64,000 nt of DNA from an uncultured Gemmatimonadaceae bacterium (GCA_963781585.1 CAWAGQ010000015.1:31474-95473); one strand, 5' to 3'. Positions 3,326-10,223 are shown, numbered from the stretch's first letter. Numbers and translations: made by a program. Notes: generated by a model from the letters alone, not told the origin.

Positions 3326-3598
3326 TCAGTACTCCGCGTACGCGTCGTCCTGATAGCAATAGAGCCATCGCTCACCCGGCTCCGATGAGCACGCGACCGG
3401 GTGCCCACTGACGCGCGAGTGCCGGCTGGCGTGGTGGTTGGGCGACTCGTCGCAGCAGAGGGTCGCCCCGCAGTCCTGGCAGGTGCGCAGGTGCACCCAC
3501 TCCGCGCCGATCTTCACGCACTCGTCGCACTGGTGCTTCTTCTCGTGCCTGACGGTCGCGATCGCGCCCAGGTGCGGGCACTCCGGATCTGAAATCAT
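3326..3598 (-). CDS. Small UBP-type zinc finger protein
   Basis: CPHL...CDEC...WVHLRTCQDCG...CCDESPNHHASRH...WLYCY pattern. Confidence 0.85.
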   Translation of the reverse strand: MISDPECPHLGAIATVRHEKKHQCDECVKIGAEWVHLRTCQDCGATLCCDESPNHHASRHSRVSGHPVACSSEPGERWLYCYQDDAYAEY

Positions 3599-4348
3599 CT
3601 AGTTCCCCGTCGGTCCAAATCGCTCGGTCCGGATCCGCGTTGCGTCGTGCCCGAGCTCGACAAGTCCGTTCGCCGCCGCCTCCACGAACGCGGTCGGACC
3701 GCAAATGTATGCCAGCGGCCGTTCCTCCGGAGGCCACGAGACATCACGCATCATATCCCGATCGATCCGTCGCCGGTATCCGGCCCACCGCTCCGGCCAC
3801 TCCCGCGTGAGTGTGAAGCGAATGTCCGCCTCATGGTGGGCAGCCAGACGAGCGAGCTCATCCCGATAAATGACCTGCGACAGCGATCGGGCCGAATAGA
3901 GCAGTCGCGCCGGAACCGTGCTTCGCACCGCCGCCCGGTGCCGCAGCATCGCGCGGAGCGGTACGATGCCGGAGCCGCCGGCCAGCAGGAGCAGCGGTCC
4001 GCCGAGCGGCTCGTGCCAGACGAAGTACCCACCGATCGGCCCGCGCAGCTCGAGCTCCCCACCCGGCTTGAGCACATCGAACAGATAGGGAGACACTTCT
4101 CCTTCCTCGAGGCGCTCCACGGTGAGCACGACCATCTCGTCCTCCGGCGCTGACGCGATCGAGTAGCTCCGCTCCGCCTGATATCCGTCCTCGGCCGTCA
4201 GGCGGACGTCCACATGCTGTCCCGCCAGGTGCCCGGGCCACTCCGGCATGTCGAGGACGAGGCTGCGCACGCGGCTGGTTTCATCGATCACATCGACGAC
4301 TTTCGCGACGTGCCAGTTCAATCGCCCTGGTAGCGCTGCTCCCGCCAC
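3599..4348 (-). CDS. Ferredoxin-NADP reductase-like FAD/NAD(P)H oxidoreductase
   Basis: RSYSIAS, GEVSPYL, RGPIG, AGGSGIVP, YICGP, C-terminal ERFG. GTG start at 4348 inferred. Confidence 0.9.
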   Translation of the reverse strand: MAGAALPGRLNWHVAKVVDVIDETSRVRSLVLDMPEWPGHLAGQHVDVRLTAEDGYQAERSYSIASAPEDEMVVLTVERLEEGEVSPYLFDVLKPGGELELRGPIGGYFVWHEPLGGPLLLLAGGSGIVPLRAMLRHRAAVRSTVPARLLYSARSLSQVIYRDELARLAAHHEADIRFTLTREWPERWAGYRRRIDRDMMRDVSWPPEERPLAYICGPTAFVEAAANGLVELGHDATRIRTERFGPTGN

Positions 4349-4926
4349 GGGTCTCCGTAGTTGTGGTAGCCGTTTACCTCCCAGAACCCGGGCGCGTCGT
4401 CCTCGCGCAGCTCGATGCCGCGCACCCATTTGGCGCTCTTCCAGAAATACAGGCGCGGGACGAGGAGCCGGGCAGGCCCTCCATGCTCGGGGTGCAGCGG
4501 CTGACCATCGTACTCGACCGCGATCCACGCCTTCCCGCCGCTGATCTCCGCGAGCGGGAGATTCGTGGTGTAGCCGCCGTCGCTCCAGGCGACGACAAAC
4601 CCGGCGTTCGCGTCAGGCACCGCCTGCGCCAGCAGCACATCGAGCGAGACCCCCGTCCACTGCGTGTCCAGCTTGGACCACTTGGTGACGCAGTGAATGT
4701 CGACGGTGAAGGACTCTCGAGGGAGCGCCATGAAATCGTCCCACGACCATGACCGCGGGTTCGCCACCGCGCCACGAATGGCAAAGCTCCACTTCTCGAG
4801 CGGCGTGCGCGGGGTAGGGCCCGCGGAAAGAACCGGAAAGTCGGTGGTGACGTACTGCCCCGGCGGTACGCGCGACGGATCGGCGGCCGTTCGTCTGCCG
4901 CGGAATCCGAAGGAGACGGGGGTCAT
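4318..4926 (-). CDS. Sulfite oxidase-like molybdopterin-binding oxidoreductase (no signal peptide)
   Basis: PPGQY, DIHCVTKWS (Mo-ligand Cys), YTTNLPL, EHGGPARL, YFWKSAKW, GFWE..GYH. Confidence 0.9.
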   Translation of the reverse strand: MTPVSFGFRGRRTAADPSRVPPGQYVTTDFPVLSAGPTPRTPLEKWSFAIRGAVANPRSWSWDDFMALPRESFTVDIHCVTKWSKLDTQWTGVSLDVLLAQAVPDANAGFVVAWSDGGYTTNLPLAEISGGKAWIAVEYDGQPLHPEHGGPARLLVPRLYFWKSAKWVRGIELREDDAPGFWEVNGYHNYGDPWREQRYQGD

Positions 4927-4936
4927 GGGGAGCTCC

Positions 4937-6565
4937 TCACTTGGACAGCGGCAGCACGCTGATCGGAAACGAGCCGGTGAGCACGTGCCCGTGTCGCTTG
5001 ACCTGGACCCAGATCGTGTACTCGCCGGGCTGCGGAAACGCGTACGGAAAATACAGGGTGTCGCTCATTGGTTCCGATGAGGGCATGACATGGGTCATGT
5101 CCATCGGCGCGCCCGGCGCCGCATGCATGAGCCGCGCCTGGGCCGCGAGCGAGATGGTCCCGATCGGGTGGAGGTGCACGAACACCTGGCCGTCATTCCT
5201 CACGACGGCGGCGTGCGCCGCCATACCCATGTAGGGCTCCAGCCCGGTCGCGTCGCCTGTCGGCGGCGAGACGGCGAACCGCAGGTCTGCCTCATCGTTC
5301 GCGTGCAGGGGGGCCTGCGGCCGCAGCCAGGTCATCGTGCTGCCGTCCGCCAGCGTGCTGCCGCGCGGGTCAGGACCGGTCGATCCCAATGCCCACGAAT
5401 CGTCGGGGTCCGGCGTCTGCTCCGGCGATCCGGGCACGGCACTGGTTGCTGGTTCAGGCAGATCGACCTCCGACGTCAGCGTTTCCGCGAAGCCGCTCGC
5501 GTGGAGGATATCGCCGAATGCCCAATAGCGACCTGGCGGAAGCGGCGGGAGCGTGACCGCGAACGTTACCGAATCCGCCGTCCTGGGGTGGATGTGTGCG
5601 AGCGCCGCGCGTCCGCCCGCCGCGATCAGATACAGGTGAACGAGCTTGCCGTGATCTTCGATCAGCTCGCTGGGCGGCCGCAGTCCGCGCGCCCGCAGCC
5701 AGACCTCATCGTTGCGATGGATCCACGCCGAGTCCTCGATCGACAGCAGCAGGCGCGACGCGCGCGGACCCGGATCGACGCGGGAGCTGGCCGTCATCGG
5801 GCGATACAGCGTGCGGGCGAAGGTCGCGTCGGCCGAACGCCACCACAGCGCGGACCCGGTCAGCGCCAGAGCGATCACGACCACCGCGCGTGCCATGGCG
5901 AAGCGGGCACGGCGCCGGCGCGGCAGATCGGGTTCTTCGCCGGGCGCGAGCACGCTCTCGCGCACCGCCGCCCCCACGATCGACACGACGCCTAACGCGA
6001 GAAAGAGGCCGGCCGCGATCAGCACGGCCGCAAGCGGCCGGCTGAACCCCAGCCGTCGCGACGCGACCGCCACCAGAGGTATCACCACCGAACCGGTCCC
6101 CTTCCCGCCGCGCACCCCCACGGTCACGCTATTGGAGCCGGCGCTCATCACCCACAGCCGGGTGCGATACCAGCCGGGACTGCCGGGGACCGGCGCCGCC
6201 ACGTCGGGCGGCGGCGCCCCACCGGTGGCGTCGAACTTGTTCGCGAACGCGGTGACCCGCTCCACCCCGGGCTCGTTCGCCCGCACATTCACGATTGCGA
6301 TGCCGGGCACCACCGCCGGCGTCTGGATGTGCACCAGCACATGGTACGGGCCCGCCGGCCCGTCGTACCACGCGTCGGGGCTGCCCACATGGGCCGAACA
6401 CACCAGCACTGTTGCGGTGAGCATGGCGACCCGCTTGACGAGCGCTGGAATGCCGCCGCGACGGACGTACGGCTCGTGCCGCGGTCCCGTCCCTGCGGGG
6501 TGCGCCACAGGCGCGGCCGGCGACGGCCAGGCCACGGACATCACCGCGACACGCACGCGTTTCAC
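4937..6565 (-). CDS. Exported two-TM His/Met-rich protein with predicted mature N-terminal His (PmoB-like topology); putative copper-binding subunit
   Basis: Signal-like AMLTATVLVCSA|HVGSP, a ~110-aa beta-rich domain, two hydrophobic helices, then two related domains (DHGKLVH...AHIHP and YMGMAAH...VHLHP). GTG at 6565 overlaps the upstream TGA; the start is uncertain. Confidence 0.7.
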   Translation of the reverse strand: MKRVRVAVMSVAWPSPAAPVAHPAGTGPRHEPYVRRGGIPALVKRVAMLTATVLVCSAHVGSPDAWYDGPAGPYHVLVHIQTPAVVPGIAIVNVRANEPGVERVTAFANKFDATGGAPPPDVAAPVPGSPGWYRTRLWVMSAGSNSVTVGVRGGKGTGSVVIPLVAVASRRLGFSRPLAAVLIAAGLFLALGVVSIVGAAVRESVLAPGEEPDLPRRRRARFAMARAVVVIALALTGSALWWRSADATFARTLYRPMTASSRVDPGPRASRLLLSIEDSAWIHRNDEVWLRARGLRPPSELIEDHGKLVHLYLIAAGGRAALAHIHPRTADSVTFAVTLPPLPPGRYWAFGDILHASGFAETLTSEVDLPEPATSAVPGSPEQTPDPDDSWALGSTGPDPRGSTLADGSTMTWLRPQAPLHANDEADLRFAVSPPTGDATGLEPYMGMAAHAAVVRNDGQVFVHLHPIGTISLAAQARLMHAAPGAPMDMTHVMPSSEPMSDTLYFPYAFPQPGEYTIWVQVKRHGHVLTGSFPISVLPLSK

Positions 6566-7731
6566 CGCTGCACCCGTCCCATGCCCGACCCGATCCACAA
6601 TCCCAGGCGCGACGTGACTACGGCTGTGACAATCGCGATCGCCAGCGTCCGCGCGAACGCGAGGGCGTTGGGCTCGGGCGTCCAGAACTGATACCGCCAG
6701 TCACCGAGCCGCACGTAGTAGTCCCAATGGTCCGCGCCGAAGACGAAATTGCGCGCGTGAGGCATGAGCAGGAACTCACCCCACCACCAATGCGCCGCGA
6801 GCATCAGGAGCACGAACGACACGCCGATCGTCACCGACAACACCCCGTCGCGCCCACGCAGCCGGCGCATCAGCAGATCGATCGCCAACGCCGGCACCAC
6901 CACCAGCAGCGGAAACGGGGGCGGCACCATGTGGGTGACCGGATTGTAGATCGGCGCCAGCTTGGGTGTGGCGGGAAAAAGCTGCAGCGTCCACATCATC
7001 ACGAGGACGATCGACATGTAGATCGTCGCCGTGGTCGTGGCCGGCCACCGCAGCCGCGATGGCCGGGAGGTGGCCGTGAGGATCAGCGGCATGCCGATCG
7101 CCGTGAGCCGGTAGAAGCGTCCGGCGTGCATGTCGTTCGGGAACGCCGCGTACTCCATCAGCACCGTCGCGTGCATGGTGAGCAGAATCCCCGCCGATGC
7201 CGCGTAGAGCATTCCGAGCCGTCGCTGGGTATCCGGTGTCGCCCGGTTCTGCCTGGCGAGGCACATCAGCATTGCGCCGATCTCGATGGCGATCATGCCC
7301 CAGGCGAGCACCATGTGTGGCGGGCTCATGATCTTCACGTCCAGGCCGTACGCGTCGTGCCACCAGTTGTCGAGCGGCGCGGACGTGATCATCATCAGCG
7401 TCCCCCAGATGCATAACCAGGCGCCGAGCGGACCGCGGAACCCCCAGAAACGCACCCCCCGTGTGTGGGCCGCGGGATCGCCGAACGTCATCCGCAACAC
7501 GAGTGTCCCACACGTTGCGCCCGCCACGATCGCGGCCAACTGCTCGAGCAGGTGGGCGGGGGTCCAGAATGTGTCGCGCCCGATGGTGCGGTGCCACGAA
7601 ATGTCCCAGATCAGCCCCACCACGATCGACACCGACGCGAACAGCACCGCGTAAAGGGGCCACATCCGCTCCGTGACCTGAGCTCGTGCGGCGCTCCGGA
7701 CCACTGGGGTCGCTTCGATGATCGTGCTCAC
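6562..7731 (-). CDS. Polytopic membrane protein, PmoC/AmoC-like N-half plus PmoA/AmoA-like C-half (candidate divergent CuMMO core)
   Basis: D43-x3-H47-x12-H60 (WDISWHRTIGRDTFWTPAHLLE) and D121-x3-H125-x13-H139 (DNWWHDAYGLDVKIMSPPH); RLRWPAT and FPLLVVVPALAID segments; many TM helices. Confidence 0.65.
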   Translation of the reverse strand: MSTIIEATPVVRSAARAQVTERMWPLYAVLFASVSIVVGLIWDISWHRTIGRDTFWTPAHLLEQLAAIVAGATCGTLVLRMTFGDPAAHTRGVRFWGFRGPLGAWLCIWGTLMMITSAPLDNWWHDAYGLDVKIMSPPHMVLAWGMIAIEIGAMLMCLARQNRATPDTQRRLGMLYAASAGILLTMHATVLMEYAAFPNDMHAGRFYRLTAIGMPLILTATSRPSRLRWPATTTATIYMSIVLVMMWTLQLFPATPKLAPIYNPVTHMVPPPFPLLVVVPALAIDLLMRRLRGRDGVLSVTIGVSFVLLMLAAHWWWGEFLLMPHARNFVFGADHWDYYVRLGDWRYQFWTPEPNALAFARTLAIAIVTAVVTSRLGLWIGSGMGRVQR

Positions 7732-10148
7732 CTGGGGACCGATTCCTGGGAATGCACTCCTGCGAGAGGCGGGGCCGCGGCATCAACTGCCACGTGGAAA
7801 TCCCGGCCCACCCATTCCGCGCTGTCGCGCCATTGGAATGTGAAGTCTACCACGCGCGCCTGTGACGACGGAGCTACGCCGAGCTCGAAGGCGTGCAGAC
7901 CAAGGCCGGTATCGTCGGTCTCACCATCGGACGGACTCTGCCAGCCATTCACACCCCAGTGGATGCGCGCAGCACGGGGCACCGCCACCACGAGCGACGA
8001 CCCGCGCTCGATCCGGCCAATGGGCGCATGAAGGCACCAGATGGCGCGCCGGGCATCCGGCCGCCGGCCGCCGTAACGCCGCCACACCGCCGCCGGCCGG
8101 TCGAACGGATATCCCAGGTGACGCGAGATCATCAGCTTCAGAAACTCCGCGTGCGCCCACACCAAGGGCATGGCCGCTCCGGTGGGCCGGCCCGGGAAGA
8201 GCCGCAGTGCCGGCAGGGCATCCGTGTCCCACACCTGCTCCGGCATCATGCCGCCCGGTCCCACCATTGCCGCCATCACTTTCAGATAGGACGAGGGATC
8301 GTTACCCGCGGCCAGCTCGTAGTGCCCGCGCTCGCCCGTCAGCAGCGGCCAGGCACGTCCCCGGCCACTCCCATCGAACGGACGGCCGTCGCGATGCTCG
8401 CCATATCCGTCGCCATTGTAGCGATGCCACGCGGGCCCACTCGGCGTCTCCACCTTGAGCAGGGCGTCGGCCACCTTCAGGCTGCCGCGAACGCACGGAT
8501 CGTCCGGCGCCCGCAGACCGAAACGCACGAGCTGCAGGAAATCCAGGCTGACCTGCTCGTCGGCCGGCACGCCGGACATCTGTCGCCGATTCTTGATCTC
8601 GAGCATGCCCTCCAGCGACGCGCGGTCGTGCAGCACCTCCGGGGGCGCCACTCGCACGTAGTAGCTTTCCACGCCAACACGCCTGGCGAGTGGCGTGTCC
8701 TGCGCCGCCATCCACGACTCGGCGCGCGAATTCCAGAAATCGGCCAGCGCGAGGGCGAGCCGCTTCGCCGGCGCGTGCACGAACTCCGCACCCGCAACCA
8801 GTGCCGCGATACACACCGCCAGCGTGAACGGATTGATCCCCGCGTTCTCTTCCCACCGGTCCTGGTCGCTCGATGGTCCCGTGGTCGCGAGGAACGACAG
8901 GGCACGAGCGATCATGTCGTGCACCACGATGCCCTGCAGAGCATCGCGCTCCGCGAGCGCGGCAGCGAGCAGCACCGGGAACGCGACCTCGTCCAGCTGC
9001 AGACCTTCCCAGTATGGAGTCCCGCCAAGCCACTGGTTCTGGTTCCAGCTTCCGTCCTGCCTCTGGGTGGCGATCAGGTAGCGGAGGGTGTTGCGTGCCT
9101 CCTTCTCGGCGCCTAACGCGAGAAAGGCGCTCGCGCACTGCACCAGGTCGCGCGGCCACACCAGGTGATAGCCGCCGCGATCGTCCCGGCTGTTGCCCCA
9201 CGGTACGCTCAGGCTCGCGACCATCGCGCCGGGATACGTCTTGTCGCAGTGCGCGCGCAGCACCATGGTGGAGAGATGGAACTGCTCGGCGAACTCGTCT
9301 GCCTCATCGGGTCGGAGCAGGGTGCGTCGTTCGCGGCGCGCATGCCACTGGCGCCACATCTCGATCTGGCGCTCGAGGATGGAATCGAACGGCTGCATCA
9401 GAGTCGAAACAGCCAGCGTGGCAGCCGAGTGCATGCTGCTCCCGAAACCGAGCCCCAGGACCGACACGCGGGGCAGCGCCCCGATCATGGCGACGTTCCC
9501 GGGACCGGCGCTGGCGTACTGCCACGTGAGGGCGCCGTTGCGATGAAAATCCTGCCAGCCGTCGCTCTCGCCCACATACCCGGCGCTGGCGGCGCCCAGC
9601 GCGTCCTGCTGGGCCTCGTCCACGGCCGCCAGCGCGAGCCCGAAAGGTCCCTGCTCCGCCGCCAGCACACGGCGCGTTCCATAGCGCGCGATGACCGCCG
9701 TGTTCTCACGGCCACTGGTGCCGAGTCGGGGAGCGATGAGCACGTAGGGCCGAAGGTCGTCGTCGCCGGTAAGGCGCACGTCGATCACCAGCGCGTCCCG
9801 GTCGGGATCCGGCGTAATCCTCAGTGCGAGGGCGAAGCGCTCGTGCGTGTGGACGATCTCGACGGCGGGTGTCCCCGGGCCGAGCAGCCGCAATCGGTAG
9901 TTCTCGAGGCGTTTGACCTCGACCCAGAACCCACGTCCGTCGCCAACGATGAACCCGAGGTCGCGAATCTGCGCCAGGTCCACTCTCGGATAGTATACCT
10001 CGTTGATGATTCCGAAGCCGAGCGTGAACCAGACGCGCGACCGGCCCAGCGCGCAGCCGACAACGTCCTTGGCGCTGCTGCACCAGGTGGGCGCGATACC
10101 CGGACTGCCTGGGGCCTCGCCTCGTGGCTCTTCTCCGGAATCATGCAT
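7728..10148 (-). CDS. Glucoamylase / glucodextranase (GH15)
   Basis: APGSPG..PTW.S.AKD N-terminus, ASLSVPWG, GYHLVWPRD, QLDE, QDRWEE, RYNGDGYGE, WPLLTGERG, MPEQVW, PLVWAHAEF. Confidence 0.92.
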   Translation of the reverse strand: MHDSGEEPRGEAPGSPGIAPTWCSSAKDVVGCALGRSRVWFTLGFGIINEVYYPRVDLAQIRDLGFIVGDGRGFWVEVKRLENYRLRLLGPGTPAVEIVHTHERFALALRITPDPDRDALVIDVRLTGDDDLRPYVLIAPRLGTSGRENTAVIARYGTRRVLAAEQGPFGLALAAVDEAQQDALGAASAGYVGESDGWQDFHRNGALTWQYASAGPGNVAMIGALPRVSVLGLGFGSSMHSAATLAVSTLMQPFDSILERQIEMWRQWHARRERRTLLRPDEADEFAEQFHLSTMVLRAHCDKTYPGAMVASLSVPWGNSRDDRGGYHLVWPRDLVQCASAFLALGAEKEARNTLRYLIATQRQDGSWNQNQWLGGTPYWEGLQLDEVAFPVLLAAALAERDALQGIVVHDMIARALSFLATTGPSSDQDRWEENAGINPFTLAVCIAALVAGAEFVHAPAKRLALALADFWNSRAESWMAAQDTPLARRVGVESYYVRVAPPEVLHDRASLEGMLEIKNRRQMSGVPADEQVSLDFLQLVRFGLRAPDDPCVRGSLKVADALLKVETPSGPAWHRYNGDGYGEHRDGRPFDGSGRGRAWPLLTGERGHYELAAGNDPSSYLKVMAAMVGPGGMMPEQVWDTDALPALRLFPGRPTGAAMPLVWAHAEFLKLMISRHLGYPFDRPAAVWRRYGGRRPDARRAIWCLHAPIGRIERGSSLVVAVPRAARIHWGVNGWQSPSDGETDDTGLGLHAFELGVAPSSQARVVDFTFQWRDSAEWVGRDFHVAVDAAAPPLAGVHSQESVPR

Positions 10149-10223
10149 GTCGCGTTCTCGTCGTTATGGAATCCGATGATGATGGCGACGCGCCCGACTT
10201 CGGGCCACATTCACGATAGTAAC

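Follow-up and report, generated by a model that had tools for sequence, protein, structure and literature searches.

The methane and nitrogen cycles depend centrally on methane and ammonia monooxygenases. Debate continues over where these enzymes came from and over what their B subunit and their copper sites do. Bacterial PmoB and AmoB consist of two cupredoxin-like domains joined by two transmembrane helices, according to PMC13058606, and PMC12576850 gives the PmoC ligands as Asp156, His160 and His173 for the CuC site and Asn227, His231 and His245 for the CuD site. In PMC8424229, YcnJ is described as CopC, a membrane domain and YtkA, and YcnI as a membrane-anchored protein with a conserved Trp as well as an N-terminal His. 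PMC9182242 describes CrdA as lacking His and binding through a Met-rich loop, and PMC12537917 describes 'anglerases', N-terminal-His β-sandwiches tethered to HupE/UreJ metal permeases. Here we analyse a gene at positions 4937–6565, on the minus strand, of a 64,000-nucleotide stretch of DNA (the window) from an uncultured Gemmatimonadaceae bacterium (GCA_963781585.1 CAWAGQ010000015.1:31474-95473). The gene is real, and its product, P0001, is encoded directly after a polytopic membrane protein, P0002.

In gene position and topology P0001 is an analogue of PmoB, though not a detectable homologue of it, and its gene forms an obligate adjacent pair with the gene upstream. The resulting two-gene module is widespread and apparently undescribed. 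Our favoured reading, of moderate confidence, is that P0001 is exported, anchored in the membrane and turned towards the periplasm, and serves as the metal-binding partner in a conserved membrane complex of two subunits; copper is the likeliest metal. Between an enzyme and a copper handler, we have a slight preference for a copper-dependent redox complex. A first-pass annotation had proposed a PmoB-like subunit completing a C-A-B gene order, with the caveat that it might be an analogue or a copper-delivery subunit and not a true PmoB; the caveat proves to be the better-supported reading.

Architecture and conserved residues of P0001

The features of the gene are as follows, with residues numbered from the start of the longest open reading frame (ORF) at 6598.

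4937–6565, minus strand: the P0001 gene; the longest ORF starts at 6598
6562–6565, minus strand: GTGA overlap of the P0001 GTG start (6565–6563) and the P0002 TGA stop (6564–6562)
6392–6565, minus strand: presequence and signal peptide, with hydrophobic core MLTATVLV and cleavage motif CSA; the n-region is unusually long if translation starts at GTG 6565
6389–6391, minus strand: His70 codon, predicted mature residue 1, preceded by MLTATVLVCSA
6041–6391, minus strand: domain 1 (residues 70–186), exported β-sandwich in the AlphaFold2 model, of a CrdA-, CBM56- and YtkA-like fold
6154–6152, minus strand: invariant Trp149 of domain 1
6148–6146, minus strand: near-invariant Met151 of domain 1
5957–6040, minus strand: transmembrane helix 1 (residues 187–214), packing on partner helix 3 in the complex model
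5813–5926, minus strand: helix 2 (residues 225–262), an Arg-rich cytoplasmic start (RRRRAR) followed by transmembrane helix 2
5459–5794, minus strand: domain 2 (residues 269–380), exported β-sandwich with His316, His321, His335 and His337
5599–5585, minus strand: AHIHP motif of domain 2
5399–5458, minus strand: variable linker between domains 2 and 3, of lower model confidence
4952–5398, minus strand: domain 3 (residues 401–549), a repeat of domain 2, with Met459, His462, His475 and His477
5179–5165, minus strand: VHLHP motif of domain 3
4937–4939, minus strand: stop codon

An AlphaFold2 model of P0001 (pLDDT 93.3, pTM 0.90; 118-row alignment) contains, in order, one β domain, a pair of long helices and another two β domains. 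The PmoB-like layout proposed in the first-pass annotation, an exported β domain followed by two transmembrane helices and a further exported region with two H-x-H-P motifs, is recovered in this model with both motifs present, and one extra β domain is added at the C terminus.

We aligned 54 sequences whose members are 31–64% identical to P0001. The possible ligands that are invariant in this alignment are His70, Trp149, His321, His335, His337, Met459, His462, His475 and His477, and this set includes the His residues of both AHIHP and VHLHP. In the AlphaFold2 model, the His triads H321/H335/H337 and H462/H475/H477 each lie on or beside two neighbouring β-strands. Domains 2 and 3 match one another in hhalign (probability 95.5%, E 1.6e-8) and are an internal duplication; the match pairs His316 with Met457, His321 with His462, His335 with His475 and His337 with His477. 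His70 is the sole invariant His of domain 1, where the other invariant residues are Trp149 and Gly and Pro residues. Without a second such His, the domain offers no CuB-type His33/His137/His139 site, as the absence of the CuB H-x-H noted in the first reading had suggested. The Met/His-rich segment noted there does correspond to a loop in domain 3, where the enrichment is modest: Met and His make up 10.7% of the loop against 5.5% overall, about twofold.

Signal peptide and start codon

Ser68, Ala69 and His70 are invariant among 25 close relatives, and the His is kept far more widely. A strict pattern detects it in 230 of 269 family proteins; the remaining 39, read by eye, comprise 19 that are truncated at the N terminus, 16 with the His in the same context, two with it in a shortened context and two without it. 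With this reading included, 246 of the 250 N-complete members carry the N-terminal His in its standard context, and the two N-complete members that lack it have Tyr and Asp. The preceding residue is Ala (207 cases), Gly (20) or Ser (2), position −3 holds a small or neutral residue, the stretch of ten residues ahead of this motif is hydrophobic in 93% of cases, and the median position of the His is 20. Such a pattern suggests signal peptidase I (Sec-type) cleavage that would leave His as residue 1, in agreement with the CSA/H cleavage context predicted earlier.

The start codon of P0001 in this window is less certain. GTG 6565 is in frame and overlaps the TGA of the upstream gene, as first read. 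When starts were sought 14–45 codons before the His, 44 of 77 relative pairs had a usable start and the other 33 had none; the stop/start overlap is typical of the family, since 33 of those 44 pairs overlap the partner stop by 4 nt. GTG 6565 keeps this habit but implies a presequence of 58 codons against about 20 elsewhere, and the partner stop is separated from the His codon by 170 nt here, compared with a median of 56 nt in 77 relatives. ATG 6541 and ATG 6424 are alternative starts, and all three would give the same mature protein. A Val just ahead of the hydrophobic core was rejected as a start because its codon is GTC. The closest relative (82% identity) also has the N-terminal extension of the presequence at the protein level. 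Here and in that relative about 38 extra codons, some of them encoding VRRGG, are inserted ahead of the hydrophobic core; the signal peptides of other family members have about 20 residues.

Relationship to PmoB

P0001 could instead be a true PmoB orthologue that has diverged beyond recognition, in which case the pair would be a streamlined monooxygenase with a fused C-A subunit and a B subunit. The gene order, the PmoB-like topology and the His at the N terminus fit this idea, and according to PMC13058606 true PmoB proteins do not always retain the CuB histidines. We nevertheless regard it as improbable. PF04744 gives no match at E ≤ 0.1 in P0001 or its 54 relatives; in the same Pfam scan true PmoB was found with E 1e-171 and 1e-190. 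As a reference set we used pmoCAB operons collected from metagenomes by an A189 primer pattern (31 PmoC, 47 PmoA and 34 PmoB candidates, with two triplets confirmed by Pfam). Against the 34 PmoB candidates, which were taken from beside pmoA, the full-length P0001 family has an hhalign probability of 2.8%, and domains 1, 2 and 3 have 0.2%, 5.7% and 2.6%, respectively. The His-triad duplication of domains 2 and 3 has no PmoB counterpart. Homology to PmoB is not supported.

Structural comparison is divided. Foldseek does list PmoB (3rfr_A) and AmoB (9pxf_A), at ranks 40 and 42 with E 2.9e-5, which favours a diverged orthologue, but with TM-scores of 0.12–0.15 and beneath many generic tandem Ig/FnIII proteins. 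Archaeal AmoB and PmoB are nearly superimposable at about 20% similarity, as stated in PMC13058606, and no such closeness is seen here. PmoB was absent from the 50 VIA-align rows shown, both for a second look at the Foldseek matches and for a search of 48,161 representatives, which shows neither agreement nor difference of the folds. Canonical pmoA (PF02461), pmoC and PF04744 were not found in the organism's own genome (93.5% complete), and PF04744 gave no match in 401 Gemmatimonadota genomes; these blanks are weak because no control genome passed the cut-off in either search.

The membrane partner

The upstream gene supplies the C-like and A-like parts of the comparison with pmoCAB.

6562–7731, minus strand: the P0002 gene, encoding a 389-residue polytopic membrane protein
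P0002, N-terminal four helices: PmoC-like core with D43/H47/H60 and D121/H125/H139
P0002, C-terminal half (residues 165–389): PmoA-like fold by structure search

The CuC and CuD ligand sets of PmoC/AmoC (PF04896) are present in the partner at the spacing of that family. The hhalign probability of the partner family against PmoC is 54.6% (60.8% for the N-terminal half), with E about 1e-4. This alignment places D43, H47, R52-D53-T54 and H60 on the Asp, His, RDT and His columns of PmoC, and D121, H125 and H139 on the Asn, His and His columns, with Asp replacing Asn. Both ligand sets lie at predicted helix ends, beside short loops, as they do in PmoC. A profile search of the PDB with the partner alignment returned nothing relevant at E ≤ 10, and a wide structure search with the N-terminal half gave generic four-helix bundles only; the partner structure search listed the best chain of each entry, so PmoC chains were invisible in it. 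Because the upstream gene combines a PmoC-like metal core with a PmoA-like fold and P0001 comes next, placing P0001 in the B position after C and A is a fair description.

Paralogues of the membrane protein also occur without a P0001 partner, at 3858–5000 of locus L085 (genome G049) and 3544–4647 of locus L084 (genome G112). The ligand motifs are lost in both of these loci, which were the ones read from three partner-only genomes: one paralogue has His47 changed to Gln and RDT to QTG, and the other lacks the whole first motif. Each adjoins a divergently transcribed gene for a putative β-propeller-like protein with a twin-arginine-like start.

A predicted P0001–P0002 complex

Structure prediction suggests that P0001 probably binds P0002. 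The modelled 1:1 complex scores 0.80 (runs 0.83, 0.80 and 0.79), compared with 0.00 for the best of three controls, so that the interface envisaged in the first-pass annotation is predicted and passes its controls. Of 157 solved complexes, 116 reach this mark, compared with 2 of 215 mismatched pairs; both figures are approximate, since the alignments were our own. At least 80% of contacts recur between runs, and the partner pLDDT is no lower than 83. Both membrane helices of P0001 pack on partner helix 3 in the model. Confident contacts place transmembrane helix 1 on this helix (residues 102–116), and the loops of domain 1, including Trp149 and Met151, are placed on partner loops 119–132 and 255–264 and on R52-D53; loop 119–132 carries D121 and H125. 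Interface residues of the transmembrane helices are more conserved than the remaining helix residues (0.68 versus 0.42). That the model passes through memory of pMMO (particulate methane monooxygenase) structures is less likely, because P0001 has no sequence likeness to PmoB, although such memory may contribute for the membrane chain.

Conservation and distribution of the pair

We surveyed the best 80 loci among 451 species genomes with a relative. A P0002 homologue lies directly upstream on the same strand in 77 of them, and the other three end at a contig edge. Among 301 Gemmatimonadota genomes, 69 have the P0001 family, 70 the partner family and 67 both, where genome G182 is included among the positives in each of the first two counts. 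Only two genomes have the P0001 family by itself, one as a partial gene at a contig end and the other as a weak match to domains 2 and 3, and three have only the partner family. The pairing across genomes that was offered earlier as a check on the annotation therefore holds. By coordinates, the two genes are adjacent in all Gemmatimonadota cases but one. This exception is a second copy in genome G034, in which a 4.7-kb insert with a GMC oxidoreductase and three other ORFs separates them. At this locus (L083, G034:C2, 2374–10156) the insert encodes a putative Tat-signal (twin-arginine translocation) protein, the GMC oxidoreductase, an unassigned 331-residue protein and a C92-amidase-like protein.

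Clustering of the 80 loci revealed no further conserved neighbour. A small transmembrane protein is encoded downstream in 18 of the 80, with a member of its family present in 21, a secreted protein to which Pfam assigns no family is encoded upstream in 18, and a two-component system is present in 12–13.

The P0001 family has at least 1098 matches in a collection clustered at 90% identity, and none of the 120 matches listed is named or has a Pfam domain. At 50% identity it comprises at least 2143 clusters at E ≤ 1e-3, and 453 at E ≤ 1e-30. Named genome records are nearly all from Gemmatimonadota, with a few from Acidobacteriota, Holophagales and Longimicrobiales, and a protein atlas likewise holds unnamed clusters from Gemmatimonadota and Acidobacteriota. 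In Acidobacteriota, 21 of 201 genomes match (a count that includes genome G426), about nine at full length and the rest in domains 2 and 3 only. Short acidobacterial relatives without the N-terminal His domain (for example in G583, G515, G418 and G565) may represent a separate type of partner. A full-text literature search with terms for a Gemmatimonadetes copper membrane monooxygenase and for PmoC-like or AmoC-like proteins found nothing on the P0001 family.

A possible copper-handling or redox role

Beyond ligand chemistry, a few leads connect P0001 with copper. In structure searches, domain 1 resembles CrdA and CopC. One full-length relative, P0395 (1138 residues, six contigs), is fused at its C terminus to a copper amine oxidase; it retains a signal peptide, AH/VGSPD, two transmembrane helices and both His-triad domains, and matches PF02728, PF02727 and PF01179. 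At one paralogous locus, a plastocyanin/azurin-family ORF (9794–10156) lies directly downstream of the second copy in G034. The loss of the ligand motifs in the two partner-less paralogues described above is a further lead.

On our favoured reading, signal cleavage would expose His1 and create an N-terminal copper site of the YcnI/CopC type, possibly shared with invariant Trp149 and near-invariant Met151. Domain 1 would dock on the periplasmic loops of the partner that bear its second ligand set, as the complex model predicts, and the three domains of P0001 might capture copper and keep it at the PmoC-like sites, or pass copper or electrons on there. P0001 would thus take the part of PmoB, yet be made of different, copper-chaperone-like β-sandwich modules.

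The main rival shares these first steps and differs only in the job of the membrane protein. On this view the pair acquires or chaperones copper in the manner of CopC/CopD or YcnI/YcnJ: P0001 would collect periplasmic copper, the partner would be a permease or insertase, either for import or to load copper enzymes of the periplasm, and no substrate would be oxidized. The CrdA- and CopC-like domain 1 and the weak Pfam matches to YtkA are what this rival would lead one to expect; the architecture echoes YcnJ and YcnI, as PMC8424229 describes them, and the 'anglerases' of PMC12537917 provide a precedent for His-first β-sandwiches tethered to metal permeases. The fusion of one relative to a copper amine oxidase is also in keeping with it, as is the absence of a conserved reductase or downstream metabolic gene near the 80 loci. 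The partner, however, does not resemble CopD. It retains the two ligand sets along with the RDT of the proposed PmoC catalytic region and has a PmoA-like fold, features for which a plain permease has no obvious need, and its ligand sets are found by short loops at predicted helix ends and not along a membrane-spanning path. On balance we consider the acquisition system unlikely, while taking it as the foremost competitor of a copper-dependent redox complex.

A number of observations weigh against our favoured reading. Copper is assigned from ligand types together with weak similarities. YtkA (PF13115) is matched below its cut-off (6 of 54 members at E ≤ 0.1, the best at 4.6e-4 with 21.2 versus 25.9 bits), and the CopC matches in Pfam, in 4 of 54 members, are also below cut-off. 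Just one protein cluster represents the fusion to a copper amine oxidase in a search for longer forms, in which finding few is weak evidence, and the 80 loci have no conserved copper, redox or regulatory gene in their neighbourhood. For the partner, the Pfam AmoC score of P0002 (E 1e-3) is 18.8 bits against a cut-off of 26.7, a sub-threshold AmoC match occurs in 2 of 24 partner members, and outside the motifs the sequence case for a PmoC-like protein is weak. In the complex model, the interface of domain 1 is not significantly more conserved than its remainder (0.60 versus 0.56, permutation p 0.25), and His70 lies outside the confidently placed interface residues, so the model does not fix how close it is to the partner sites.

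Both of the YtkA matches shown map to domain 1. P0001 has neither a CopC (PF04234) profile match nor the Cu(II) site formed by His1 and a second His, and YcnI/DUF1775 (PF07987) has no Pfam match at E ≤ 0.1 in P0001 or the 54 relatives. From the YcnI ligand set, P0001 has the His and the conserved Trp, and the 54 sequences have no conserved Glu. Pfam searches with the three isolated P0001 domains returned nothing useful.

P0001 might alternatively serve another metal (Ni, Zn or Fe), or be a structural or assembly subunit, with no copper role. His triads bind zinc well. N-terminal-His β-sandwiches can also prefer nickel, as DUF4198 does according to PMC12537917. The partner ligand sets are, however, those of the pMMO copper sites given in PMC12576850, conserved Met and Trp residues stand beside the His residues, and copper is also indicated by the fusion to a copper amine oxidase and by the neighbouring cupredoxin gene, each as a single case. 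We judge this the least probable of the explanations considered.

A more specific version of the redox reading sees in the two genes a minimal relative of the copper membrane monooxygenases, with a fused C-A subunit that has both PmoC copper sites and an independently recruited, chaperone-built B-like subunit, oxidizing a small or hydrophobic substrate in soil Gemmatimonadota and Acidobacteriota. This idea we hold as quite doubtful. If it is true, the module would offer a living picture of how pMMO and ammonia monooxygenase were assembled from a copper-handling system. If the pair only handles copper, it would still be a new system of that kind in abundant soil bacteria. Either way, a common and nameless module joins PmoC ligand sets and a PmoA-like fold to a different, chaperone-like periplasmic subunit, and such a small, naturally simplified system could be used to probe the role of the periplasmic copper subunit and the ancestral function of this enzyme class.

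Neighbouring genes in the window

The window has a G+C content of about 68%. P0001 and P0002 lie among five head-to-tail ORFs on the minus strand, in the order GH15 glucoamylase-like protein, P0002, P0001, molybdopterin oxidoreductase and FNR-like reductase.

7728–10148, minus strand: GH15 glucoamylase-like gene (Glucodextran_N and Glyco_hydro_15)
4318–4926, minus strand: small molybdopterin oxidoreductase, MsrP/sulfite-oxidase-like, 202 residues
within 3599–4528, minus strand: FNR-like FAD/NAD reductase

The stop of the GH15 gene overlaps the GTG start of P0002 in a second GTGA (7728–7731). The molybdopterin oxidoreductase gene starts 10 nt past the P0001 stop and is followed by that of the FNR-like FAD/NAD reductase. 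The GH15, molybdoenzyme and reductase genes of the window are found in none of the 80 related loci, indicating that their linkage to the pair is local.

Comparison with known systems

The CrdA protein of Helicobacter pylori (PDB 9ll2), which chaperones copper in the periplasm and is CopC/PcoC-like, is similar at 11% identity, a likeness tempered by generic Ig-like and CBM domains that score equally high. P0001 resembles YcnI (DUF1775) and YcnJ of Bacillus subtilis, and CopC/CopD, in being a membrane-tethered, His-first β-sandwich with a conserved Trp, in being paired with a polytopic membrane protein and in its weak likeness to YtkA and CopC. It differs from them in having no DUF1775, CopC or CopD match above cut-off and no counterpart of Glu50 of YcnI, and its membrane partner, in contrast to CopD, is PmoC/PmoA-like. 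By their description, the 'anglerases' are also similar, as P0001 would be a His-first β-sandwich held at the membrane beside a metal-handling membrane protein, although the membrane partner is of another kind.

From PmoB and AmoB, P0001 is set apart by the lack of sequence or profile similarity and of an H-x-H in domain 1, by having three exported domains and not two, with domains 2 and 3 being duplicates that carry His triads, and by a partner that is a single fused C/A-like protein without the first two PmoC helices. What it has in common with them is a signal peptide before the His, the succession of a β domain, two transmembrane helices and a β domain, a gene placed directly after PmoC- and PmoA-like sequence, and modelled binding to that membrane partner.

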